The notes below the pieces were generated by a model. That model searched no databases, had not been told where the DNA came from, and saw only the letters and a list, made by a program, of their open reading frames with translations. The position numbers and the translations under genes are program-made. A DNA stretch of 64,000 nucleotides, taken from NCBI GenBank assembly GCA_031262695.1, contig JAISHF010000004.1:107993-171992 (forward strand), written 5' to 3'. Below, piece by piece: positions 4,211 to 17,053 of the stretch (position 1 is its first letter; each line of letters starts with the position of its first letter). The stretch is from Candidatus Nomurabacteria bacterium (GTDB taxonomy: Bacteria; Patescibacteriota; Saccharimonadia; Saccharimonadales; Saccharimonadaceae).

Positions 4211-5034
4211 AGCACGCTTTCGGCCAGAGCGGCGATTTTGGGGGTTGGGTTCCAGATGGATAGCAAGAGGGCCTTGACGGCTGGCTCGCCGCCCCAGAGA
4301 GTGAGGGGGTTGTATTTGGTGGTGGGGAGGCTTGTTGAAATAACTTCGCCATTTTGGGCGACAAGGAAGTTGTCGTTTGCAAAAGTGGCAATGCCGCATT
4401 GGTAGGTGAGGGTGAGTTTGTGCAAAACTTCGGCGAGTTGAGGCAGCGGCATAGTAGAAGTGATGATTTTGGGGTAAAAAACCGATTTGAGGAGTTTTTG
4501 CAGTTGAGTGAAGGTGAGAAAGAGTTTGGCGTTCGGGTTTTCAAGTGGCAAGGCGGGGAGGAGTAAATCTATGGCGTCGCGAGTGATTAGCAGGGACTTT
4601 TTAGAAAAGGTTATTCCCGAGGCAGAATCGCCCTTATTGTCTTGGGAATAGCCTTGCTCTAAAAAGTTGCTAAAAACTTGGGCGGTTTCGGCGTTTTTGC
4701 CGAAGTCGCCGACGAATAAAATACCGTCGGCCCAAGCGGCGAGTTCTTGGAGGTCGTTTTCAGCGGCCTTGGTGAAGCCGAGCGATTTTGGGTCGCCCGA
4801 AAAAATGAAATCGGGATTTTTGGGGAGGAGTTTTTCTAGGGTTTTAGGGAATAAAACTTTCACCTCGCCTGCACCTAATTCTTTAGCCTTGGTGTAGGCA
4901 TAGTTTACGCCAGCAAAGCCCGCCGAACTGCCGCCGATGAGCAAGATTTTACCCATAAGGTCGCGGCGTTCGGGCGCTAAGAGGTTGTCGGTAAAAAGCG
5001 GCTTAGCGGCATCTTGAACGCGGAAAAAGTTCAT
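4207..5034 (-). CDS. YjeF C-terminal / carbohydrate-kinase-like protein (NAD(P)HX dehydratase-like, divergent)
   Basis: GKILLIGGSSAGFAGVNYAYTKAKELGAGEV resembles the GGSxxYxGA segment of NAD(P)H-hydrate dehydratases. The C-terminal GxGD motif is not clear. Confidence 0.4.
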   Translation of the reverse strand: MNFFRVQDAAKPLFTDNLLAPERRDLMGKILLIGGSSAGFAGVNYAYTKAKELGAGEVKVLFPKTLEKLLPKNPDFIFSGDPKSLGFTKAAENDLQELAAWADGILFVGDFGKNAETAQVFSNFLEQGYSQDNKGDSASGITFSKKSLLITRDAIDLLLPALPLENPNAKLFLTFTQLQKLLKSVFYPKIITSTMPLPQLAEVLHKLTLTYQCGIATFANDNFLVAQNGEVISTSLPTTKYNPLTLWGGEPAVKALLLSIWNPTPKIAALAESVL

Positions 5035-5801
5035 AATTTGACCTCCACGCTAATCGGGCAGTGGTCGGAGCCGCGGACCTGCTCGTAAATCTCGGCATTT
5101 TTGGCGGTAAGATTTTTGGCGAGGGCATAGTCAATCCGCCAACCATTCAGGCCGCGTTCGCGGACGCGAAAACTCCACCAAGTATATTGGATTTTGTCGG
5201 GGTTTTCTTCGCGCCAGATATCGCGAAAGCCGGCGGCAAGGTAGTTTTTGAAGTCTTGGCGCTCCTCTATGGTAAAGCCGTGAGCGCCTTTTTTGGTTTC
5301 GGGCTTGGCGACATCAATTGGTTCGTTGGCAACGTTAAAGTCGCCCATTAGCAGCGCATGGGGCTGATTTTTTAGCGAGCTGTTGATATAGGCGTCCCAT
5401 TTGACGCGGAGCGGAATGCGGCTCAAATCTTCTTTGCCGTTTGGGGCATACATATTGACGACGAGAATTTCGCCGATTTTGACGGCGGTCAGGCGGCCTT
5501 CGCTGCAAGCGTCGCCGTATTTATCAGATAAATCAGTTTTTTGTAAAATTATTTCTTTGGCGGCGAGAGATTTTTTGGTCCAGATGGCAGTGCCGGCGTA
5601 GCCTTTGCGTTTGGCGAAGGACCAGAACATCTCGTAGTCGGGAAATAGTTCGGCTAGTTTTAGCTCGGCGAGCTGTGATTCTTGGATTTTGATTTCTTGC
5701 AAGCCGAGAATGTCGGGGTTATATAACTTTATAAAGTTTTGCAGGTCGCCACGGTTGAGGATTGCCCTTAATCCATTGACGTTCCAAGAAAAAACCGTCA
5801 T
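5031..5801 (-). CDS. xth: exodeoxyribonuclease III (AP endonuclease)
   Basis: SWNVNGLRA, LGLQEIK, MGDFNVA and GSDHCPISVEV are typical ExoIII/APE1 EEP-fold motifs. Confidence 0.9.
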   Translation of the reverse strand: MTVFSWNVNGLRAILNRGDLQNFIKLYNPDILGLQEIKIQESQLAELKLAELFPDYEMFWSFAKRKGYAGTAIWTKKSLAAKEIILQKTDLSDKYGDACSEGRLTAVKIGEILVVNMYAPNGKEDLSRIPLRVKWDAYINSSLKNQPHALLMGDFNVANEPIDVAKPETKKGAHGFTIEERQDFKNYLAAGFRDIWREENPDKIQYTWWSFRVRERGLNGWRIDYALAKNLTAKNAEIYEQVRGSDHCPISVEVKL

Positions 5802-6274
5802 CTTGCTCCTTTGATGGCGCGGCGGGCTTCGCGGTCGCTGTCGCGGCGCTTGATGGTTTCGCGCTTGTCGTAGGATTTTTTGCCCTTGCCTAGGGCGATT
5901 TCTACCTTGACGAAGCGGCGAGCGGCAAAAAGTTTAGTTGGCACAATGGTGTAGCCGGCAGTGCGGGCGCTAGCGAGTTCTTGGAGTTGCTTTTTTTTGA
6001 CGAGCAACTTAATTGGGCTGGTGTCTATCACGCTTTCGCCGTCGTGGCCGCCGTTTTTGAGGCTAAAACTGGCGTTTTGTAGCCAGAGTTCGCCGTTGCG
6101 GACGACCACATAGGCGCCCTTCAGCTGAACGCGATTATCACGGACGGCACGGACTTGTTTGCCCGAAAGCACCAGCCCAGCGGTGAGATTTTCACTGAGA
6201 GTGTAGTCAAAATGCGCACGGCGATTGTCTACCACAGTGGGCTTTTTGGCTGGCTTATGCTTGGTTTTGGGCAT
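5798..6274 (-). CDS. smpB: SsrA-binding protein SmpB
   Basis: NRRAHFDYTLSE..., GYTIVPTKLF... and GKGKKSYDKRETIKRRDSDRE match SmpB. Start chosen at MPKTKHK (ATG 6274), just after the upstream gene's stop. The track start at 6295 is also possible. Confidence 0.88.
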   Translation of the reverse strand: MPKTKHKPAKKPTVVDNRRAHFDYTLSENLTAGLVLSGKQVRAVRDNRVQLKGAYVVVRNGELWLQNASFSLKNGGHDGESVIDTSPIKLLVKKKQLQELASARTAGYTIVPTKLFAARRFVKVEIALGKGKKSYDKRETIKRRDSDREARRAIKGAR

Positions 6275-6275
6275 T

Positions 6276-6545
6276 TTAGGCCTTTTTGCCCTCAATCTTG
6301 GCGATGGCGTCTAGGATTTTGGCGCGGTCAAAACCCTCAACGACAGCAACTAGTTTGTCGCCGTCGTAGATTTCGGTGGTTGGGTAGCCAGCCAAGTTCG
6401 GGTTGCTCTCGCCGTCTTTTTCTTTATAGGTGATACCACTGTCGTTTAACCAGTCCATTAGGGCGTGGCAATAGCCACACCAGCTGGCGCTCCAAACGAC
6501 AATTTTGGCTCTCTGACCCTTTACTTGTGTGTTATTTTCACTCAT
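6276..6545 (-). CDS. glutaredoxin/NrdH-like small redox protein
   Basis: 89 aa. KIVVWSASWCGYCHALMDWL contains a CxxC active site in a thioredoxin-fold context. Confidence 0.7.
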   Translation of the reverse strand: MSENNTQVKGQRAKIVVWSASWCGYCHALMDWLNDSGITYKEKDGESNPNLAGYPTTEIYDGDKLVAVVEGFDRAKILDAIAKIEGKKA

Positions 6546-7474
6546 AACCCCTCCTTTTTTAAGATTTCGCGCGCTTCTGCTACATTTTTCGTATCCATAA
6601 GTTTGGCTCTAAGGTCGCTAGCACCCCGCGTGCCATGCACATATACCTTAAAAAATCGCTTTAGTGGCTCATATTTGCTGATTTTGTATTGCTCCCAGAG
6701 GTCTAAATGATATTTGAGTAGTTCAATCAGTTTGGCAGGTGTGGGCTGGTGGCCGGTAAAGCAAAAGGGGTTGGCGAAGACGCCGCGACCAATCATGGCG
6801 CCGTCAAAACCGAATTTTTTGGCCATTTCTAACCCTGTTTCGGCATCAGGGATGTCGCCGTTGAAGATTAACTTAGTTTTAGGGGCGATTTCGTTTCGCA
6901 TAGCGACGATTTCGGGGATTAATTCGTAGTGGGCAGGGACTTTACTCATTTCTTTTTTGGTGCGAAGGTGGACGGTGAGGGCTTTGAGGTCTTGTTGCAG
7001 TAAAAACGGCAGCCAAGTTTGGTATTCTTCTACCTTGCTGTAGCCTAAGCGGGTCTTAACACTGACATCTATATCGGCGGTTTTGGTGGCCTTGATGATT
7101 TCGGCGACGAGGTCGGGCGACTTGATGAGGGCGGAGCCGCCACCACTTTTGACGACGTTTTTATCGGGGCAACCAGTATTGATGTCAACCGCAAGATAGC
7201 CGAGGTTTTTTAGCCCCTCGGCGAGTAGGGCGTAGTTCTCGGGGGTTTTGCCCCAGATTTGGGCGACAATTGGCTGCTCGCTCGGTAAAAATCGTAGGCG
7301 CTCCAAGGCGTTGGTGCGACCATTCTCGTTGGCATAACTATAAACGTTGGTAAATTCGGTAAAAAAGACATCGGGCCGCCCCGCCCGCGCCACAATTTGG
7401 CGAAAGACGATATCGGTCACGCCCTCCATTGGGGCGAGAACGGTAAATGGCTGCTTAAACTTATCCCAGAACAT
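6542..7474 (-). CDS. dus: tRNA-dihydrouridine synthase
   Basis: FTVLAPMEGVTDIVFRQ, VDINTGCPDKNVVKSGGGSAL and MIGRG are Dus-family motifs. Start taken at MFWDKFKQ. Confidence 0.85.
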   Translation of the reverse strand: MFWDKFKQPFTVLAPMEGVTDIVFRQIVARAGRPDVFFTEFTNVYSYANENGRTNALERLRFLPSEQPIVAQIWGKTPENYALLAEGLKNLGYLAVDINTGCPDKNVVKSGGGSALIKSPDLVAEIIKATKTADIDVSVKTRLGYSKVEEYQTWLPFLLQQDLKALTVHLRTKKEMSKVPAHYELIPEIVAMRNEIAPKTKLIFNGDIPDAETGLEMAKKFGFDGAMIGRGVFANPFCFTGHQPTPAKLIELLKYHLDLWEQYKISKYEPLKRFFKVYVHGTRGASDLRAKLMDTKNVAEAREILKKEGL

Positions 7475-7648
7475 ATCTATATTGTAACATATTAAAACTC
7501 CCAGACGCAATATTTCGCGTCTGGGAATTATGAAACACGCATTAGGCTAGGCAGGACACAGGCGGAGGACAAAACTGCCCCTTTTGTTTATACAGCCCTT
7601 ACGCGTGAATCAGGCAGAGGTGATTATACGCCGTAGTGCATGCAGTAG

Positions 7649-8011
7649 TTATGTGTGGGTTAGGATACTCAGTACGCTCGTGCCGATTTTTTGGATAAAT
7701 GTTTGGTTGCCGGCTTGCGATGTGCGGTAATATTCGGCGTCGGTATTCATAACCTGTTGTCCGGCCGAAGCGGTGGCATCGCGGACTGTGATTACACGGT
7801 CTAACTGCGGTGCGGGTTTACCTGGTTCGTGCGTGACGATTTTGTCGGTTGCGCCGAAAACTTTATCCCAGAAGGTTGGCTCGGAAACGGTTGCGTTAGA
7901 AACTGTATTGCTGCTATATCCGCTTGAACTGCCTGAGCTGGCACTATTCATAGCACTGGACATAGAGGCTACCGAACCGGGACGACTGCTGTAGCTATAG
8001 CCACTTGTCAT
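7649..8011 (-). CDS. hypothetical Ser-rich protein
   Basis: ORF with GGGGAGG about 12 nt upstream of ATG 8011 (MTSGYSYSS...). N-terminus is low-complexity Ser-rich. No family recognised. Confidence 0.3.
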   Translation of the reverse strand: MTSGYSYSSRPGSVASMSSAMNSASSGSSSGYSSNTVSNATVSEPTFWDKVFGATDKIVTHEPGKPAPQLDRVITVRDATASAGQQVMNTDAEYYRTSQAGNQTFIQKIGTSVLSILTHT

Positions 8012-8304
8012 TTTGATCACCTGCCTCCCCGTAAGTCGGGAAGGTCCTTTCATTAAAAGTACGCCGGTCGGCGCATTTTAATGAAGGGAAGGCAGCGACC
8101 GGTGTCTGTTAAGGTTATTTTAGCATACAAAATCACCGATGTAAAGTTGTTAAGGTTAAAGATTTTGCATTTTAGACTTGATTTTTGGGGCTGGGTGTGA
8201 TATAATAGAGGTAAGAAGAGAAATCTTGGAGGTAGGCGATATTCGCTATCTTTATGGGGTAAGCCCAAGAAATAATATTAAATATAAGTGGAAATAGGAG
8301 AATA

Positions 8305-10470
8305 ATGGAAAACGGCAAACAGCGAAGAGAAAGAATGCAAAAATTGCGTGATGAGCGACTAAAACAGTTGGCAGAAAAGCGTGAAATGCGTGAAGGTGGC
8401 AGCCGTGGCGGGGAAAATAGCGCACAAAGTGGCGTTTTGGGGGCGAGCGATCGGAGTTTTGGGGCGCGAAATCGTGGCAATAGTAGTGTCAATAGAGGTG
8501 GCAGTGGCGGTCAGGGCGGCGGCAACAAAAAAGACCGCTATGCACAATTAAAGCGGCAAAATGAGGCAGCACGACTACGGAATGAGGAGCGGCGCAAACA
8601 ACTCGGCGTGTCGTCGCGGGCGGGTGAGGTGACGCGGGCGCAACGGATGAAGAGCCATGATGTCGTGGCTCAGGCGAGTCAGCATCATATTGGTGTGCCA
8701 GTGAATAAGACACGCTATAATGGCACAAATGGCAAGCAATTAGAGCCGCGGCTCGCAAAAAATGCACCAAAAAACCCTGATGCAGTGCGGATTGTGGCAT
8801 TGGGTGGCCACGGCGAAATCGGTATCGGCAAAAATATGACGATGATTGAGTATAAAGACGAGATTATCGTGATTGATATGGGGGTGTTGTTTGCGAACGG
8901 CGACTATCCGGGAGTGAATTACCTGACGCCAAGCACCAAATATCTAGAAGATAATTTAGACAAGGTGAAGGCGATTTTGTTTACGCACGCCCACCTTGAC
9001 CACATTGGCGGCACGCGGCATATTTTGCCACGATTCAATCCGATGACGCCAGTTTATGCGACTGAGTTTACGATCAATATGATTAAAAAGCAAATGAGTG
9101 AATTGCCTGAACCGCCAGACACGAATTACCAAATTGTCAATGCGTTTGAGCATAAAGAGATTAAACTTTCGGAACATTTGTCGGTGGAGTTTGTGCATAC
9201 TTTGCACTCAATTCCGGGCAATGCGTCGCTGGTTCTGCGCACGCCGAATGGGGTGGTGCTGTATATGGGCGACTGGCGGTTTGAGAATAATCCTGTGGCA
9301 CCGGCGTTTGACATGCCGCGGCTAGAAGAAATCGCCAAAACTGAGGGGATTTCGTTGTTAATAAATGAGTCAACTAATATTGATAGCCCTGGCACACATC
9401 CGTATTCGGAGTTTGATATTGCCGAGAATATGGGGCGTGCGATGGATCGGGCCAATGGGCGGCTGATTATTTCGTGCTTTTCGTCGCAGGTGGTGCGAAT
9501 GCAACTTGTGCTAGATGAGGCGGCAAAACGTGGCAAAAAAGTGGCGTTTGCTGGGTTCTCAATGATTAACAACGTAGAAGTGGCGCTCCGCTCGCGGCAG
9601 ATTAAAGTACCAAAAGACACCGTGATGAAAATGGAAGATGTCGTCAAGATCCCAGAGGAAAAGGCGGTGATTGTCTGCACGGGGTCGCAGGGCGAGATGA
9701 ATGCGGTCTTAAACCGAATGGTGTCGGGTGAGCATAAGTATATCAAGATTAAGCCGACCGATACGGTGGTGTTCTCAAGCAACCCAATTCCGGGCAACGA
9801 GCCACACGTGACGGCGACGGTTTCGGGATTAATGCGTGAGGGCGCCGAGGTGATTCAGAATAACAAGGGGCATATTCACGGGCTTGGGCCACTGCATATT
9901 TCGGGCCACGCTTATTTTGACGACCATGTTAAGTTGGTGCAGACCTTGAAGCCGCTAAATTATCTACCAAATCACGGCGAGTTTTATATGTTGGAGCATA
10001 ACGCCGAGATGGCGGAGAATGTCTGTGGGATTCCACGAGAGCGAATTCTGGTGGTGGATGACGGCGATATTGTAGAGTTGGGACCAGATAAGCGAATTAA
10101 AAAGTCGGGGCGGATGCCGGTGGCGTCGGAACTTTGGGACGACGCTGGGCATATCGTGTCGGAGGCGGTGGTCAAAGACCGCATTCACATCTCAACTGAG
10201 GGGATTTTTGTGGTGGTGCTGACTTTTGCTCGTAAAACGGGCAAACTGATTAAGTCGCCAGATGTGATAAGCCGCGCGTTTATCTATATGGACGACGCCG
10301 AAGAGTTAATCGGCAAAGTGCGGCATTATATCCGCACCAAAACCGAACGTGGCGTGAATATGAACAAATTGGACGCCTTGAAGACAGACTTAAAAGAAGA
10401 CGTGGCGCATATCTTGTTTGATGCAACGGGCCGCACGCCAATCGTCTTGATTGCAACAAATTATATCTAA
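8305..10470 (+). CDS. rnj: ribonuclease J with an Arg/Gly-rich N-terminal extension of about 160 aa
   Basis: Metallo-beta-lactamase HAHLDHIGG and beta-CASP architecture, with typical RNase J blocks (GGHGEIGIGKNM, NPIPGNE, HISGHA). The N-terminus holds RGG-like low complexity (GGSRGGEN...NRGGSGGQGGGNKK). Confidence 0.9.
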   Translation: MENGKQRRERMQKLRDERLKQLAEKREMREGGSRGGENSAQSGVLGASDRSFGARNRGNSSVNRGGSGGQGGGNKKDRYAQLKRQNEAARLRNEERRKQLGVSSRAGEVTRAQRMKSHDVVAQASQHHIGVPVNKTRYNGTNGKQLEPRLAKNAPKNPDAVRIVALGGHGEIGIGKNMTMIEYKDEIIVIDMGVLFANGDYPGVNYLTPSTKYLEDNLDKVKAILFTHAHLDHIGGTRHILPRFNPMTPVYATEFTINMIKKQMSELPEPPDTNYQIVNAFEHKEIKLSEHLSVEFVHTLHSIPGNASLVLRTPNGVVLYMGDWRFENNPVAPAFDMPRLEEIAKTEGISLLINESTNIDSPGTHPYSEFDIAENMGRAMDRANGRLIISCFSSQVVRMQLVLDEAAKRGKKVAFAGFSMINNVEVALRSRQIKVPKDTVMKMEDVVKIPEEKAVIVCTGSQGEMNAVLNRMVSGEHKYIKIKPTDTVVFSSNPIPGNEPHVTATVSGLMREGAEVIQNNKGHIHGLGPLHISGHAYFDDHVKLVQTLKPLNYLPNHGEFYMLEHNAEMAENVCGIPRERILVVDDGDIVELGPDKRIKKSGRMPVASELWDDAGHIVSEAVVKDRIHISTEGIFVVVLTFARKTGKLIKSPDVISRAFIYMDDAEELIGKVRHYIRTKTERGVNMNKLDALKTDLKEDVAHILFDATGRTPIVLIATNYI

Positions 10471-10655: not shown

Positions 10656-10684
10656 TTGACAATATATATGCGAGGTGATATAAT
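10656..10684 (+). promoter_or_regulatory. sigma70-like promoter of the methyltransferase/helicase operon
   Basis: TTGACA (10656-61), a 17-nt spacer ending in TG-A, then TATAAT (10679-84). ATG at 10693 is only 8 nt downstream. Confidence 0.6.
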
Positions 10685-10692
10685 ATAATTAT

Positions 10693-11351
<659 letters not shown>

Positions 11352-11352
<1 letters not shown>

Positions 11353-12983
11353 TGGCGAATGGCATTTTGACGCAGCTGTTAAACAGCGACCACAAGCCGG
11401 ATATTTTGGATTGTATTGCGAATCTCTCCAACGATGAGGTTTTTACGCCGCCGAAGATGGCGAATAAGGTTCTGGACGCCTTGCCGGCAGAAGTCTGGAC
11501 GAATTCGGAGTTGAAATGGCTTGACCCGGCGGTAAAAACTGGGGTATTCTTGCGTGAGATTGCGAAGCGGCTGATGGTGGGGCTGGCGGATGAATTTCCG
11601 GATGAAGAAAAGCGTCGTGAGCATATTTTTGGGCGAATGCTGTATGGAATTGCGATTACGGAACTCACGGCGCTAATGAGTCGGCGGAGTCTATATACTT
11701 CAAAAAACGCCGGCGGGGAGAAGTCTATTGCGCATTTTTCCGACAACGCCGGAAATATTGACTACGAAAACCGCGACCATAGTTTTGGCGCGGACGGAAA
11801 GTGCGTTTATTGTCGGTTAAGCCGAGATGAGGCAAAGCTCGGCAGTCGTAAAGATTCGCAAGAAAAACACGCCTATAAATTCATTCATTTAAGTAAGAAG
11901 GAGGTAGAAAATATGCATTTTGATGTAATTGTTGGCAATCCGCCGTATCAACTAAGTGATGGCGGATTTGGCGCCTCCGCTCGCCCGATTTATCATCTTT
12001 TTGTTGAGCAAGCCCGAAAACTAAATCCGCACTATATGGCGTTTATTATCCCGTCGCGTTGGTCGGTCGGTGGCGGTAAAGGATTGGGAAAATTCCGTGA
12101 TGATATGCTTAATGACCCGCATTTAAGACATATTTATGACTATCCCGACAGTAAGGATTGTTTTCCGGGCGTCGAGGTTAAGGGTGGGGTGATGTATTTT
12201 ATTTGGGACAAGACTTATAGTGGACGAACAAAAATTCATACAATTACGTCTGAGGAAGAATTGCCAACCGTTACGCTCGATTTACATAAGTTTAATTTTA
12301 TTATTCGCTATAAAGAATTGGCAGAGATTTTAGAAATCGTTTGGCCAAACGGTCCGGTTTCGACAGATGATTCGCGCTCTATCGGTAGCCAAATATCAGT
12401 GCTCAAGCCATATGGCTTGCGCACTGATATTTTCCGCGACCCCAGTAAATACGGTTTGCCACCTCTGTATAAATCGCCCGAAAAAGCCAATCCGAAAGCC
12501 CCGATTGGAGCATTACAAATTCACGGCCTTGATAACACTAAGCGGGCGATACGCTATGCGTCAGCGGACTATCCGTTGTCTGTGGGTAGGGATACGGTGA
12601 TGAAGTGGAAAGTCTTTGTGCCGAACGCCTATGGATGCGGAGCGCTAGGAGAAACGATACCGTCGCCGATTCTCGGCTCGCCGATTCAAATTTGTTCAGA
12701 GACTTATTTGCGATTTGGAACATGGGATACCAAAGACGAGGCGAGCGCGGCGTTGAAATATCTCAAAACAAAATTTTTCCGAGTGCTTGTTGGCGCGAAA
12801 AAGACGACACAACATACAACGAGAGACACTTATTCACTTGTGCCAATGCAAGATTTTACCGAAAAATCTGATATTGACTGGACGAAATCAATTCCAGAAC
12901 TTGACGCTCAACTTTATGCAAAATATAAATTGTCCGACGCGGAGATTAAGTTTATTGAAACGATGGTGAAGGAGATGATGTGA
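11352..12983 (+). CDS. N6-adenine DNA methyltransferase (gamma-class, Eco57I/TaqI-like) with a C-terminal target-recognition region
   Basis: EVFTPPKMANKVL (motif X), WLDPAVKTGVFL (motif I-like) and FDVIVGNPPYQ (motif IV NPPY), in the gamma-class order. Confidence 0.85.
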
Positions 12984-13390
12984 GTGCAATACAAGACATT
13001 AGAGCCATATTGAAAGAAGATATCCTGCCTTTGTTTAAAGCGGTTCCTCTGCGAGCAGATAAAATAGAAAAGAGAATAGACGAGTTACGTAGTTCCTATA
13101 AATATAATGGAAATTTTTACAATGATTTAAAGGACGGGGCATGGTTGGAAAAGATAGAAAAACCTGGGCTTATGTTGTCATTATATTTGAAACGCAAATG
13201 GTTGAAGGAAGCGAAGTTTAATATCTCATACAATCATACAAATATCATGTATATGCGGTTCGAGCTTATAAAGAAGTGGATTTCGAAAAAAGATCTTGGG
13301 TATATTAATTCATTGACTAGGAAAGACAGGTATGAGAACGATCAAGAGGCTGGAAATCAAGAGTTTATGGAATATATGGAGAAGAAATGA
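12980..13390 (+). CDS. hypothetical small protein, AT-rich insert inside the operon
   Basis: GTG start overlaps the upstream TGA, with AAGGAG 6 nt upstream. Its stop overlaps the next ATG (ATGA). Visibly more AT-rich than its neighbours. No family recognised. Confidence 0.45.
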   Translation: MSAIQDIRAILKEDILPLFKAVPLRADKIEKRIDELRSSYKYNGNFYNDLKDGAWLEKIEKPGLMLSLYLKRKWLKEAKFNISYNHTNIMYMRFELIKKWISKKDLGYINSLTRKDRYENDQEAGNQEFMEYMEKK

Positions 13391-15957
13391 ATAACGACTT
13401 ATTAAATTATCGCAAGAAGCCGTTGATTTATGTTTATGAAATGGCGGGGCAGACGGGGGTGAAGGTGGGGGATACGCATGTGGGGCGGGAGGACTTGAGT
13501 GATTATGAGGCGGTTGTTCATCGGATTAGCCAGAGTTTTACGGTTAAATTGCCGAATCCGCCGAAAATTTTGCATTATGAGGAGGCGATTACGGTTGGCG
13601 GTAAGTTTTTCCGGGACTACAGTGTGCACGAAAAACTAAAAGAGCGGGGCGTGAAACGCTTAGAGGGCGAGTGGTTTGAGATGGATATTGATACTGTAAA
13701 ATCGGTGATAAATGAAATAAAGACTGGAATGCATGTTGCCGATAGCGGGCGGACTGCGAATTTTGCGATGCGGCCGGAGCAGGCAAAAGCTGTGAATGAT
13801 ACAGCGGAGTATTTTACGAAATATCCGCGGGAGAAAGACGGAAAGGCGCCGCACTATCTTTGGAATGCGAAAATGCGGTTCGGTAAGACTTTTACGGCGT
13901 ATGAACTGGCGAAGAAAATGGGCTGGAAGCGGATTTTGGTGCTGACTTATAAGCCGGCGACGGAAAAAGCGTGGCGGGACGACTTGGCTGAACATGTGGA
14001 TTTTGATGGTTGGCAATTTATTGGCGCGCGGCGGAGCTGGGAGGAGGCAAACATTGATGAGAGTAAGCCAGTGGTGTGGTTTGCGTCGTATCAAGATGTG
14101 CTGGGGAAAAATCGCGATACTGGGGCAATAAAAGAGCGGCATAAGAAAATGCGCGAGATTGATTTTGATTGTCTTATTGTTGATGAATATCATTATGGGG
14201 CGTGGCGAGATACGGCGAAGGAGCTTTCGCGAGAAGAGGAAAATTTGGCGGATGATGTTTTGGAGGAGCGGCGGTTGGCGGCGGACATGCAAAAAACTGC
14301 CGAGGAGGATGAGAAAGAGATTGAGGCGATTGAAGAGACTTTGCCGATTACTACGAAAAACTATCTCTATCTTTCGGGGACACCGTTTCGGGCGTTGGCG
14401 ACGGGTGAGTTTTCTGAGGATCAGATTTTTAACTGGACTTATGCGGATGAACAGAGGAGCAAGCGTGAGTGGGGCGGGCGGGATGACGAGAATCCTTATG
14501 CGGAATTGTCAAACATCGTGATGATGACCTATCAGATGCCAGAGAGTTTGCGGGAGGTGGCAATGCAGGGAGAATTTAATGAGTTTGATTTGAATAAGTT
14601 TTTTGCGGCAAAGAAGACTGATGGCGAATGGCGATTTGTGCGAGAAAATGATGTGCAGAAATTCCTGAATAATTTGCGGGGGATTGACTTGGAGGTAGCG
14701 ATTGAGAACAAGATGGATTACAAGCGGCCGGCTTTGCCGTATGAAGACGCGCGGCTGTTATCTACTTTGACGCATACTTTTTGGTTTTTGCCGAATGTGG
14801 CGGCGTGCCGGGCGATGGAGAATTTGTTGCGGCGGGATGCATTTTTTCGCGATTATCAGATTATTCGGGCTGCTGGAAATGACACGCTGGGTGGAGATGC
14901 GGCGGTTGAGCCAGTGCGGGAGCGAATTGCGAATGGGTTGAATACGCGGACGATTACGCTGTCTTGCGCAAAGCTGACGACTGGCGTGACGGTACCAGAG
15001 TGGAGCGGGGTGCTGATGCTCAGGAATATTGAGGCGCCGGAAACTTATTTTCAGACGGCTTTTCGGGCGCAAAATCCGTGGGTTTTGCGTGGGCTGGATG
15101 ATCCAAAAGCGCGGGAAATTATCAAGCCGACCTGTTATATTTTGGATTTTGCACCGAGTCGGGCGTTGAAGTTGATGGCAAATTATTCTAATGAGCTTGG
15201 CGGCGTGAATGATAATCGGCGGCCAGAAACGCGACTGGAAGAATTCATTGAGTTTTTGCCGGTGCTTTGCTTTGATGGCGTGTCTATGACGCGGCTGGAT
15301 GCTGGGGCGATTTTGGATATTGCGACTTATGGAACGGCGTCAACGATGCTGGCGAAGCGATGGCAGTCGGCGCGGTTGGTGGATGTGACGAATGTGGTGC
15401 TGGAAAAGGTGTTGAATTCGCCAGAGGTTTTGGCGGCGTTGGAAAATTTGGAGCAGTTCCGCGGATTGTCGCAGGATTTATCCAAGGTGATTAATTCGGA
15501 GAAATTGCTTAAAAAGGCGAAGAAAGACCGCGAGAAAGACGGTGAAGAGCCAGACGAAAAGACTAAGAAAAAAGAGGGCGACGAGGAGAAGGAAAATCGC
15601 GGGTTTAAGAAGCAGTTGCGAGAAAAACTACTGAAATTTATTACGCGGATTCCAGTGTTTATGTATTTGACGGATTATCGCGAACAAAAATTGACGGATG
15701 TGATTCGTAATCTTGAGCCGGAGTTGTTTACGAAAATTACGGGGTTGTCGGTGAAGGATTTTGACAAAATGTGTGAGATTGGGGTGTTTAATCAGAACGA
15801 GTTAAATTCGGCGATTTTTCAGTTTAGGCGGTTTGAGGACTCGTCGCTGACCTATGCGGGTGGGCGGGAGTTATATGAGGATGATAAAATTGGCGGATTT
15901 GATACTTCTTTGACGCGGCGGGAAGTGGATGAGGTGATTGAGGCCGAGATTAGATAG
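13387..15957 (+). CDS. T5orf172 (GIY-YIG-like) domain fused to an SF2 DEAD/DEAH-type (ResIII-like) helicase; putative restriction/defence motor subunit
   Basis: The N-terminus LIYVYEMAGQTGVKVGDT...HEKL...EGEWFEM fits the T5orf172 pattern. Helicase motifs: RFGKTFTA (I), LIVDEYHYG (II), LSGTPFRA (III), LTTGVTVPE and QTAFRAQNP (V/VI). A Lys/Glu-rich segment sits near the C-terminus. Confidence 0.8.
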   Translation: MNNDLLNYRKKPLIYVYEMAGQTGVKVGDTHVGREDLSDYEAVVHRISQSFTVKLPNPPKILHYEEAITVGGKFFRDYSVHEKLKERGVKRLEGEWFEMDIDTVKSVINEIKTGMHVADSGRTANFAMRPEQAKAVNDTAEYFTKYPREKDGKAPHYLWNAKMRFGKTFTAYELAKKMGWKRILVLTYKPATEKAWRDDLAEHVDFDGWQFIGARRSWEEANIDESKPVVWFASYQDVLGKNRDTGAIKERHKKMREIDFDCLIVDEYHYGAWRDTAKELSREEENLADDVLEERRLAADMQKTAEEDEKEIEAIEETLPITTKNYLYLSGTPFRALATGEFSEDQIFNWTYADEQRSKREWGGRDDENPYAELSNIVMMTYQMPESLREVAMQGEFNEFDLNKFFAAKKTDGEWRFVRENDVQKFLNNLRGIDLEVAIENKMDYKRPALPYEDARLLSTLTHTFWFLPNVAACRAMENLLRRDAFFRDYQIIRAAGNDTLGGDAAVEPVRERIANGLNTRTITLSCAKLTTGVTVPEWSGVLMLRNIEAPETYFQTAFRAQNPWVLRGLDDPKAREIIKPTCYILDFAPSRALKLMANYSNELGGVNDNRRPETRLEEFIEFLPVLCFDGVSMTRLDAGAILDIATYGTASTMLAKRWQSARLVDVTNVVLEKVLNSPEVLAALENLEQFRGLSQDLSKVINSEKLLKKAKKDREKDGEEPDEKTKKKEGDEEKENRGFKKQLREKLLKFITRIPVFMYLTDYREQKLTDVIRNLEPELFTKITGLSVKDFDKMCEIGVFNQNELNSAIFQFRRFEDSSLTYAGGRELYEDDKIGGFDTSLTRREVDEVIEAEIR

Positions 15958-16009: not shown

Positions 16010-17053
16010 CTAGGCGGCGTAGTTCTCGGTGGAGAATTCTAGGGCGTCAAGGAAAAGTTGGCGGTAGGCATAGAGGTTGTGTTGCTCGTCTATAAGGAGG
16101 ACGGATTTTTTGTAGGTGCTGTCGTCGGTGTTGCGATAGGAGATTGGGGCGATGTCGCCAGCCATCAGGACGGCATTGCCTATCATTCGGGCGGTGCGTT
16201 TGTTGCCGTCGCTGAAAGGTTGCAAATAAATTAAGAGGGCGCTAATCAGCAGGGCTTTTTCAATGGTGTTGGTTTTGGCGTTAATGAGGTCAATGGCGCG
16301 GGAGAGATTCTCGGTGATGGCAAATTGGTTATCAAGCGGTAGGTAATTGGTGCCAGTGATGCGGACGGCGTGCTTGCGGATGCCGAATTCGACACCGAGG
16401 CCTTGGGTGAGTGATTGGTGGACATCTAAGATGTCAGATAAGTTGAGCTTTTTGAAGTTGGCGAGATTGTTGCGGATGCGGTCAAAAGTAGCTTTGTGGT
16501 TGATAATCATAATCGCTTCGGCCTCGCTGTGGCCCTCGGCTTGTTCGCGGTATTTGAGGAGGGTTTCGGTTTCAATTTGGGAGTAGGTGTTGCCTTCTAA
16601 GCTGGCTGACTTCCAGGCAAAATCTACCGTGAAGCGTTCCAGTTCTTTGGCGTGGAGGTCGAGCGGCAAGTCGGCGACGCGCTTGCGGTAATCGGTGATT
16701 TTGCGGCTGAGGTTGCTGATATTTGGCAAGAGGTTGGTGGTGGCGAGTTTGTCAAAAAACTCGGAATTCGGCTCGGCGGTGAGGGTGCGTTGGTCTTGTG
16801 GTAGAGTAAAATAACTTTCTGGGTTGATTGGGCCAAGTAAGGTGCTGTTGATGACGTAAGCGGTGGTAGGGCCGGCGCCGAGAGGCTTGATTAGGTCGCG
16901 AGCGGCGAGAGTGGAGAGGTCGCGGGCGAGCGTGGCGCGCGAAAGGTCGTAGGTATTGTCGAGCCGCTCTAGTATTTCGGCAGGAGCGATTGGTGCAGGT
17001 GATTTGGTGATGAGATTATAAATTGCTTGTTGGCGCTTAGTTAATTCTTCCAT
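16010..17053 (-). CDS. Fic/Doc-family protein with an N-terminal winged-helix-like region and a degenerate active-site motif
   Basis: Core motif LQPFSDGNKRTARMIGN compared with the canonical HPFx(D/E)GN(G/K)R. SASLEGN matches the (S/T)xxxE(G/N) inhibitory motif. The N-terminus (RQQAIYNLI...LSRATLARDL) is HTH-like. Confidence 0.8.
   Translation of the reverse strand: MEELTKRQQAIYNLITKSPAPIAPAEILERLDNTYDLSRATLARDLSTLAARDLIKPLGAGPTTAYVINSTLLGPINPESYFTLPQDQRTLTAEPNSEFFDKLATTNLLPNISNLSRKITDYRKRVADLPLDLHAKELERFTVDFAWKSASLEGNTYSQIETETLLKYREQAEGHSEAEAIMIINHKATFDRIRNNLANFKKLNLSDILDVHQSLTQGLGVEFGIRKHAVRITGTNYLPLDNQFAITENLSRAIDLINAKTNTIEKALLISALLIYLQPFSDGNKRTARMIGNAVLMAGDIAPISYRNTDDSTYKKSVLLIDEQHNLYAYRQLFLDALEFSTENYAA

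Follow-up and report, generated by a model that had tools for sequence, protein, structure and literature searches.

To our knowledge, all ATP-dependent restriction enzymes that have been characterized biochemically (Types I, ISP, and III) cut DNA with PD-(D/E)xK domains. Relatives of restriction-modification (R-M) systems with a helicase and a GIY-YIG domain were mentioned in passing in 2009 and 2013 (PMC2731913, PMC3553950), and the trio dnmA(yeeA)-yeeB-yeeC, known from Bacillus subtilis and Vibrio crassostreae, was proposed in 2009 as a Type I-like R-M system (PMC2731913, PMC9973331). For its part, Odn (Gp88) of ICP1, a T5orf172 protein, cleaves DNA, and its E180A variant is dead both in vivo and in vitro (PMC8263062). 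Here we analyze a four-gene cassette in a stretch of 64,000 nucleotides (the window) of a Candidatus Nomurabacteria bacterium (contig JAISHF010000004.1). The last gene of the cassette (positions 13387..15957 of the window, + strand) encodes an 856-amino-acid protein, here called the R protein, composed of a T5orf172 domain, a superfamily 2 (SF2) translocase, and a helical C-terminal domain. We consider it fairly probable that this protein is the R subunit of an ATP-dependent, DNA-translocating R-M system in which the T5orf172 domain is the nuclease.

The three genes that precede it, all on the + strand, encode a 219-amino-acid S-adenosylmethionine (AdoMet)-binding "half" methyltransferase (10693..11352), a 543-amino-acid N6-adenine methyltransferase of the Eco57I family with a C-terminal target-recognition region (11352..12983), and a 136-amino-acid product (12980..13390). 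The system is closest in module order to the Type ISP enzymes (LlaGI, LlaBIII), with a nuclease, an SF2 double-stranded DNA (dsDNA) translocase, a connector, and a gamma-class N6-adenine methyltransferase with its target-recognition region, and relatives of the window system carry all these modules in one chain. However, its nuclease is a T5orf172 domain instead of the Mrr-type PD-(D/E)xK domain of Type ISP, the window system is split, its methyltransferase gene lying upstream of its R gene, and it is always accompanied by the extra half-methyltransferase subunit. No sequence similarity between the R protein and LlaBIII or LlaGI was found by phmmer or by profile search. With Type I HsdR (EcoR124I) it shares a separate R subunit that begins with a nuclease, continues with an SF2 motor, and ends in a helical region, and the operons tolerate the same inserted accessory genes, whereas the methyltransferase is of the Eco57I/TaqI type rather than HsdM and the nuclease fold differs. 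Since no HsdS-like open reading frame (ORF) was found in the cassette, specificity presumably lies inside the window methyltransferase. In Type III enzymes, the helicase of Res is N-terminal and is followed by a PD-(D/E)xK domain at the C terminus, and Mod is of the beta class, in contrast to the N-terminal T5orf172 domain and the gamma-class methyltransferase of the window.

The dnmA-yeeB-yeeC trio likewise joins an SF2 helicase and a T5orf172 protein to an N6-adenine methyltransferase. There, however, helicase and T5orf172 domain are separate proteins, with the latter domain at the C terminus of YeeC, whereas in the window it is fused to the N terminus of the motor; the methyltransferase of the trio is MmeI-like, while that of the window matches the Eco57I family PF07669 and has a small partner. 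Odn belongs to the same domain family, and its Arg, acid-x3-His, and acid-Trp motifs align with those of the R protein, but it relies for targeting on a RepA-like DNA-binding domain and has neither a motor nor a methyltransferase partner. DISARM, BREX, MADS, and Hachiman were considered as assignments for the cassette and rejected, the matches in PADLOC or NCBIfam being only marginal.

A collection of 5.8 billion proteins searched with the R protein yielded at least 8000 matches. Among the best 120 of these, 117 were full-length (∼820 to 890 amino acids, 49 to 71% identity to the R protein), and residue conservation was assessed from the alignment of these 117 homologues. A search of PDB with the full R protein, a family profile, and an N-domain profile gave nothing significant, and at the sequence level the protein would thus have no solved relative. 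The full-length AlphaFold2 (AF2) model, with a predicted local distance difference test (pLDDT) score of 82.6, joins the N-domain to the motor by a low-confidence linker at residues 116 to 122. Every string quoted in a first-pass annotation of this DNA, made by a model from the letters and their ORFs, was found at its place: LIYVYEMAGQTGVKVGDT at residues 13 to 30, VHEKL at 80 to 84, LEGEWFEM at 92 to 99, GKT at 166 to 168, DEYH at 266 to 269, SGTP at 330 to 333, and QTAFRAQN at 556 to 563 (QxxFRxQ, 556 to 562), as well as the Lys/Glu-rich stretch at 709 to 736, which lies within Lys/Glu-rich helices spanning residues 694 to 752.

The T5orf172 domain, delimited by PF10544, the AF2 model, and the invariant residues, occupies residues 12 to 113 (13420..13725, + strand), with the order β1-β2-α1-β3-α2-β4-α3. 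PF10544 matched the full R protein over residues 14 to 111 just above the cutoff of 20 (20.4 bits, E value of 7.4e-4) and the isolated N-domain with 24.7 bits (E value of 3.4e-5). The match is not due to chance, because the same profile recognized 26 of 26 diverse homologues of the R protein, the best of them with an E value of 3e-13. The first-pass annotation had placed such a domain at residues ∼10 to 115, and the significance of PF10544 in the R protein and in every homologue tested bears this out. Consistently, the AF2 model of the N-domain (pLDDT, 87.7) gave viral T5orf172 proteins as its top structural matches in BFVD, with a probability of 1.0, albeit with E values of only 3e-3 to 1e-2. 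The MUG113 profile also matched the family, in 26/26 members at an E value of ≤10 and in 22/26 at ≤0.01; we take MUG113 to belong to the same Pfam clan as T5orf172, and PF10544 to be part of the GIY-YIG clan.

Residues P12, Y15, K26, G28, T30, R46, A67, F75, D77, and E95 of the N-domain are invariant in the 117 homologues, and I14, Y17, P56, H81, L84, and W96 are conserved in at least 90% of them. The T5orf172 motif set is complete, comprising the Tyr of β1, K-[IV]-G-x-T in β2, the Arg of α1, the acid-x3-His-x2-Leu motif of α2, and E-W-F. Y15, K26, R46, D77, H81, and E95 are therein the candidate catalytic residues. They are kept in a fused Enterococcus protein of ∼31% identity (see below), and also in loci where the tblastn matches seemed to begin late. 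The essential E180 of Odn lies in the sequence DTEQRIHEEL, at position −4 from the conserved His, and a profile alignment pairs E180 with D77, H184 with H81, the Odn Arg with R46, and the Odn D-W with E95-W96; the hhalign score between Odn and the R family was weak, while the motif register was unambiguous. Given this pairing of the Odn Arg and E180 with R46 and D77, the expected catalytic Arg and acid appear to be retained in the R family, with the acid being Asp instead of the Glu of Odn. Y15 (the first Tyr), R46 (the Arg), and D77 (the acid, a second one being E95) are all invariant, their equivalence to I-TevI being drawn through Odn and the published alignment (PMC8263062). From these data the R protein is predicted to be a nuclease.

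The SF2 motor extends over residues ∼126 to 590 (13762..15156, + strand) and consists of two RecA-like domains, as indicated by PF04851, its motifs, and Foldseek. The ResIII profile (PF04851) matched residues 126 to 278 with an E value of 3.6e-8, and all SF2 motor motifs are invariant in the 117 homologues, in agreement with the full SF2 motor described earlier for this ORF. When the full R model was compared with PDB by Foldseek, the matches were dsDNA translocases (E values of 5e-12 to 1e-9), among them Snf2-family remodelers (ISW1, Chd1, SsoRad54), LlaBIII, ZorD, and HsdR of EcoR124I. LlaBIII (4xqk_A) aligned over 920 columns with an E value of 9e-11 and the highest query TM-score (0.35), and the HsdR structures gave query TM-scores of 0.33 to 0.34.

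The motor is followed by a conserved helical C-terminal region, residues ∼591 to 856 (15157..15954, + strand), recognized by the AF2 model, by conservation, and by the PADLOC IIG profile, the alignment of which reaches residue 784. This third is almost purely helical in the full-length model, and conservation is 0.7 to 0.84 over residues 741 to 820, as anticipated from its conserved look in the first-pass annotation. It presumably docks on the methyltransferase. A second nuclease in this region, a finding that would have told against that annotation by its own terms, was rejected, because the model is all helical and Pfam gave no match to the C-terminal third even at an E value of ≤10. No PD-(D/E)xK domain was detected by Pfam or in the AF2 model anywhere in the R protein, which, together with the T5orf172 domain, agrees with the earlier statement that this domain, if it is the nuclease of the system, differs from the nucleases of Type I and Type III enzymes.

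The gene organization places the R protein at the end of what reads as a translationally coupled operon. The four ORFs are joined by stop/start overlaps (TAATG, GTGA, and ATGA), the last being that between the 136-amino-acid ORF and the ATG start of the R gene. A putative promoter, TTGACA-17-TATAAT (10656..10684, + strand), found in a consensus scan with 12/12 matches and TG extended, sits 8 nucleotides 5' of the first cassette ATG. The 543-amino-acid protein matched PF07669 (E value of 9.5e-33) and PADLOC MTase_II (2.5e-60) and contains the motifs DEVFTPP, LDPAVKTGVF, and VGNPPYQ, with NPPY at residues 196 to 199; its motif order, X-I-II-III-IV, assigns it to the gamma class. It begins directly at motif X, so that a nuclease would find no place ahead of it. 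The Lys in its motif I (LDPAVKTGVF) replaces the usual first Gly. Between motif II/III and NPPY, at residues ∼115 to 165, there is a conserved Cys/His cluster (Y-C-s-K ... H-x-w ... C-x2-C) that may be a zinc-binding insertion. The 219-amino-acid protein, matched weakly to methyltransferases by Pfam, PADLOC, NCBIfam, and PHROGs, is limited to the AdoMet-binding part of a gamma-class N6-adenine methyltransferase, with motifs X, I, II, and III (GEVFT, FLEPACGNGNF, YGVDI, and LLVGDML) but no NPPY. No mutual similarity was found between it and the large methyltransferase, including the N-terminal half of the latter.

Relatives of the R protein were present in at least 598 species genomes, in a scan with one genome per species, and an exhaustive search of representatives gave 850 clusters at 50% identity with E values of ≤1e-30 and 3063 with E values of ≤1e-3. 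In nearly all complete cluster members, 100 to 165 residues precede the motor. We retrieved 80 loci from many bacterial phyla and several archaea, the nearest being from Candidatus Saccharibacteria (61 to 62% identity), and counted gene linkage in the 59 of them with enough upstream flank. In 59/59 loci, genes for homologues of both the 219- and the 543-amino-acid proteins lay upstream in the orientation of the R gene, and they were never fused to each other. The notion that the two are halves of a single frameshifted gene was accordingly rejected, the genes being separate in all these loci and also beside the fused enzyme described below. Because of this strict linkage of the R gene to two methyltransferase genes, the R protein is best read as an R-M-like effector whose nuclease is not of the PD-(D/E)xK type. 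The earlier proposal that the R protein is the effector nuclease of the system is thus supported by residue invariance, the Odn alignment, and the linkage. The same three genes occur on plasmids, adjoining toxin-antitoxin, DUF262, and TIR genes. A phage origin was rejected, as only 5 of 50,697 phage records contained a relative.

In 34/59 loci the R gene lies less than 150 bp after the methyltransferase gene, and the closest relative (69% identity) has a cassette with no insert. In other loci, the gap holds AAA_15/AAA_21, Schlafen-AlbA_2, DUF1016 PD-(D/E)xK, RhuM, or Tn5-type transposase genes; AAA_15, DUF1016, RhuM, and Schlafen genes are common hitchhikers inside Type I R-M operons. In the window, the gap is filled by the 136-amino-acid ORF, coupled on both sides by overlaps, the product of which had no match in Pfam, NCBIfam, PADLOC, or PHROGs and no homologue in the 80 related loci. 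A role as a core component was rejected, since neither its absence from these loci nor the empty slot in 34/59 cassettes is compatible with it. It is probably an accessory gene in a variable hitchhiker slot, perhaps a new embedded gene with an accessory or defense function.

In Firmicute plasmids (Enterococcus, Bacillus, Staphylococcus, and others), sequences align with the R protein at ∼31% identity over its residues 14 to 664. The match in Enterococcus faecalis plasmid p1, which also bears optrA and fexA, lies inside a 1456-amino-acid "Eco57I ... domain-containing protein" with a T5orf172-like N terminus, ResIII, and Eco57I in one chain; an end-to-end alignment pairs its last 490 residues with the window methyltransferase (E value of 3e-58), and a separate 248-amino-acid homologue of the 219-amino-acid protein (E value of 1e-18) is encoded before it, the two genes covering 4217..9326 of NZ_MH830363.1. 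The fused form of Bacillus plasmids and the representative P0249 likewise unite T5orf172, ResIII, and Eco57I in one chain, with the candidate catalytic residues kept, and fused forms of 1100 to 1470 amino acids recur among the representative clusters. In addition, the PADLOC profile REase_MTase_IIG, of 1359 positions, aligned with the R protein at positions 150 to 808 and with the window methyltransferase at 864 to 1359. Since both the fused relatives and this profile span the two proteins, the window system can be regarded as the split version of a single-chain nuclease-motor-methyltransferase. Enterococcus accounted for 32 of the 81 records with tblastn matches of ∼31% identity, and on conjugative Enterococcus resistance plasmids the fused system adjoins optrA and fexA. 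Another helicase-Eco57I fusion related to these forms (P0262, 1299 amino acids) has its motor from residue ∼10 and therefore no nuclease domain at its N terminus, either as a nuclease-less variant or because the gene call is truncated.

If the cassette operates as an R-M system, the promoter-like site would act as a strong promoter for all four genes, with coupled translation. The 543-amino-acid methyltransferase would read a short, probably asymmetric site through its own target-recognition region and methylate adenine at N6, this being the mark of self, and the AdoMet-binding half-methyltransferase would belong to the modification module or to a sensing one. An unmethylated site would engage the R subunit, docked by its helical C-terminal domain, and the motor, similar to those of Snf2 proteins, HsdR, and LlaBIII, would consume ATP and pull in dsDNA. 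The T5orf172 domain, on its flexible linker, would then cut or nick away from the site upon stalling or upon collision of two enzymes. Methylation, ATP-driven translocation, docking by the C terminus, and cleavage with its geometry are predictions; the domains, motifs, operon structure, gene linkage, fused relatives, and resemblance of the motor to dsDNA translocases are observed.

Several observations weigh against this reading, and most of them concern the activity of the N-domain. T5orf172 has historically been annotated as a DNA-binding domain, and viral T5orf172 proteins still carry that name in UniProt. The N-domain model gave no GIY-YIG structure among the top 50 Foldseek matches in PDB (best E value, 0.29), Foldseek being weak on small domains, so that a missing match is no proof of absence. 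The canonical GIY-YIG profile, PF01541, matched 0/26 members of the R family even at an E value of ≤10, and hhalign comparisons with I-TevI and YhbQ, made with approximate sequences of these two, gave probabilities of ≤1%. As none of these three approaches gave a link, the GIY-YIG assignment rests on the assumed Pfam clan and on the alignment in PMC8263062. The placement of T5orf172 in the GIY-YIG superfamily by the first-pass annotation therefore agrees with clan and published alignments but was not reproduced by our own fold and profile comparisons, and we claim no independent demonstration of it for the R protein. Similarly, of the catalytic Tyr, Arg, and Glu that it listed, the first Tyr, the Arg, and the acidic position are invariant, whereas the canonical second Tyr (that of YIG) is a Lys, K26, and the acid is Asp. 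These features would suit a methylation-linked defense acting without cleavage, as in BREX, in which T5orf172 would be a DNA-binding or clamp module or a replication-blocking nickase and the motor would displace or stall phage replication with no double-strand breaks. We regard such a system as unlikely, because Y15, K26, R46, D77, and E95 are invariant and H81 nearly so across distant phyla, and even in the 31%-identical fused proteins, a pattern that fits an active site, and because the acid aligned with D77 is essential for the nuclease activity of Odn (PMC8263062).

Other points against restriction come from the system as a whole. In B. subtilis, dnmA-yeeB-yeeC, the nearest studied analogue, showed no restriction or anti-phage activity, while the Vibrio homologues affected phage sensitivity, as cited in the same work (PMC9973331). 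In the searchable literature, we found no biochemical or genetic characterization of the T5orf172-helicase R-M family, and the R-M reading does not account for the 219-amino-acid half-methyltransferase. By analogy with what was proposed for DnmA-YeeB-YeeC, the cassette could be a relic, its R subunit having lost activity and its methyltransferase serving as an orphan epigenetic regulator, and the apparently small host genome and the location of the cassette among housekeeping genes would be in keeping with this. However, none of its four ORFs is disrupted, their translation is coupled, a promoter with a perfect consensus lies before them, and the R protein of the window keeps every residue that is invariant in the 117 homologues, both in the ATPase and in the candidate nuclease, which makes decay quite improbable. 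Finally, the real nuclease might be another part of the system (the 136-amino-acid ORF, the C-terminal third, or the methyltransferases), with T5orf172 as an accessory. The 136-amino-acid product is devoid of annotation and its slot holds a DUF1016 PD-(D/E)xK protein in some relatives; yet the distribution of this ORF and of empty slots, the helical C-terminal third with no domain match, and the start of the large methyltransferase at motif X leave hardly any probability for a hidden nuclease. The reading of the R protein as the R subunit of an R-M system with a T5orf172 nuclease is thus the one we retain.

The cassette is flanked by housekeeping genes, on the 5' side for a peptidase M1, SpoU, Dus, and RNase J, and on the 3' side for M16 peptidases and for a peptide-chain release factor with PCRF and RF-1 domains. 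GC content is 0.435 at 12 to 14 kb, inside the cassette, versus ∼0.50 around it. Convergent with the R gene lies a gene (16010..17053, − strand) for a Fic/DOC protein with an N-terminal helix-turn-helix-like region; because it matches PADLOC SoFic (E value of 3.5e-15) and PDC-S04, the islet may hold a second defense gene. Altogether, the cassette looks like a small, horizontally acquired defense islet. Apart from this, the RNase J (8305..10470, + strand) has a low-complexity N-terminal extension of ∼170 amino acids, rich in Arg, Gly, Ser, and Asn, before its metallo-β-lactamase domain, and the GC skew of the + strand is positive across the whole 64 kb (0.10 to 0.38), independently of gene orientation.

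The novelty implied by the first-pass annotation holds only in part. The family is apparently uncharacterized, but RefSeq already names its members "GIY-YIG nuclease family protein," and allusions to such systems date from 2009 and 2013. The window protein thus belongs to a very large, already annotated, and apparently experimentally untouched family, which defense-finding tools now file loosely as "Type IIG" or just as "helicase." It is conceivable, although we hold it only tentatively, that the family constitutes a distinct class, with a GIY-YIG-clan domain on an Snf2/HsdR-like translocase and the obligatory AdoMet-binding half-methyltransferase as a cofactor sensor or licensing subunit. We know of no characterized R-M type with a stand-alone subunit of the latter kind. 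Canonical GIY-YIG members are reported to act as monomers that nick strands one at a time (PMC8263062 and the title of the I-BmoI study cited there); if the class is real, a motor-coupled nuclease of this clan could cut with a geometry unlike those of Types I, ISP, and III.

For the window alone, the main outcome is that what looks like a horizontally acquired defense islet is now cleanly annotated. For the family, it is the motor and methyltransferase logic set on a different nuclease fold, in a group that is common and reaches the optrA/fexA resistance plasmids of Enterococcus. The characterization of one member would provide a new subtype for REBASE and for defense-finding tools, an explanation of the half-methyltransferase subunit, and a test of T5orf172 domains as general motor-driven nucleases.

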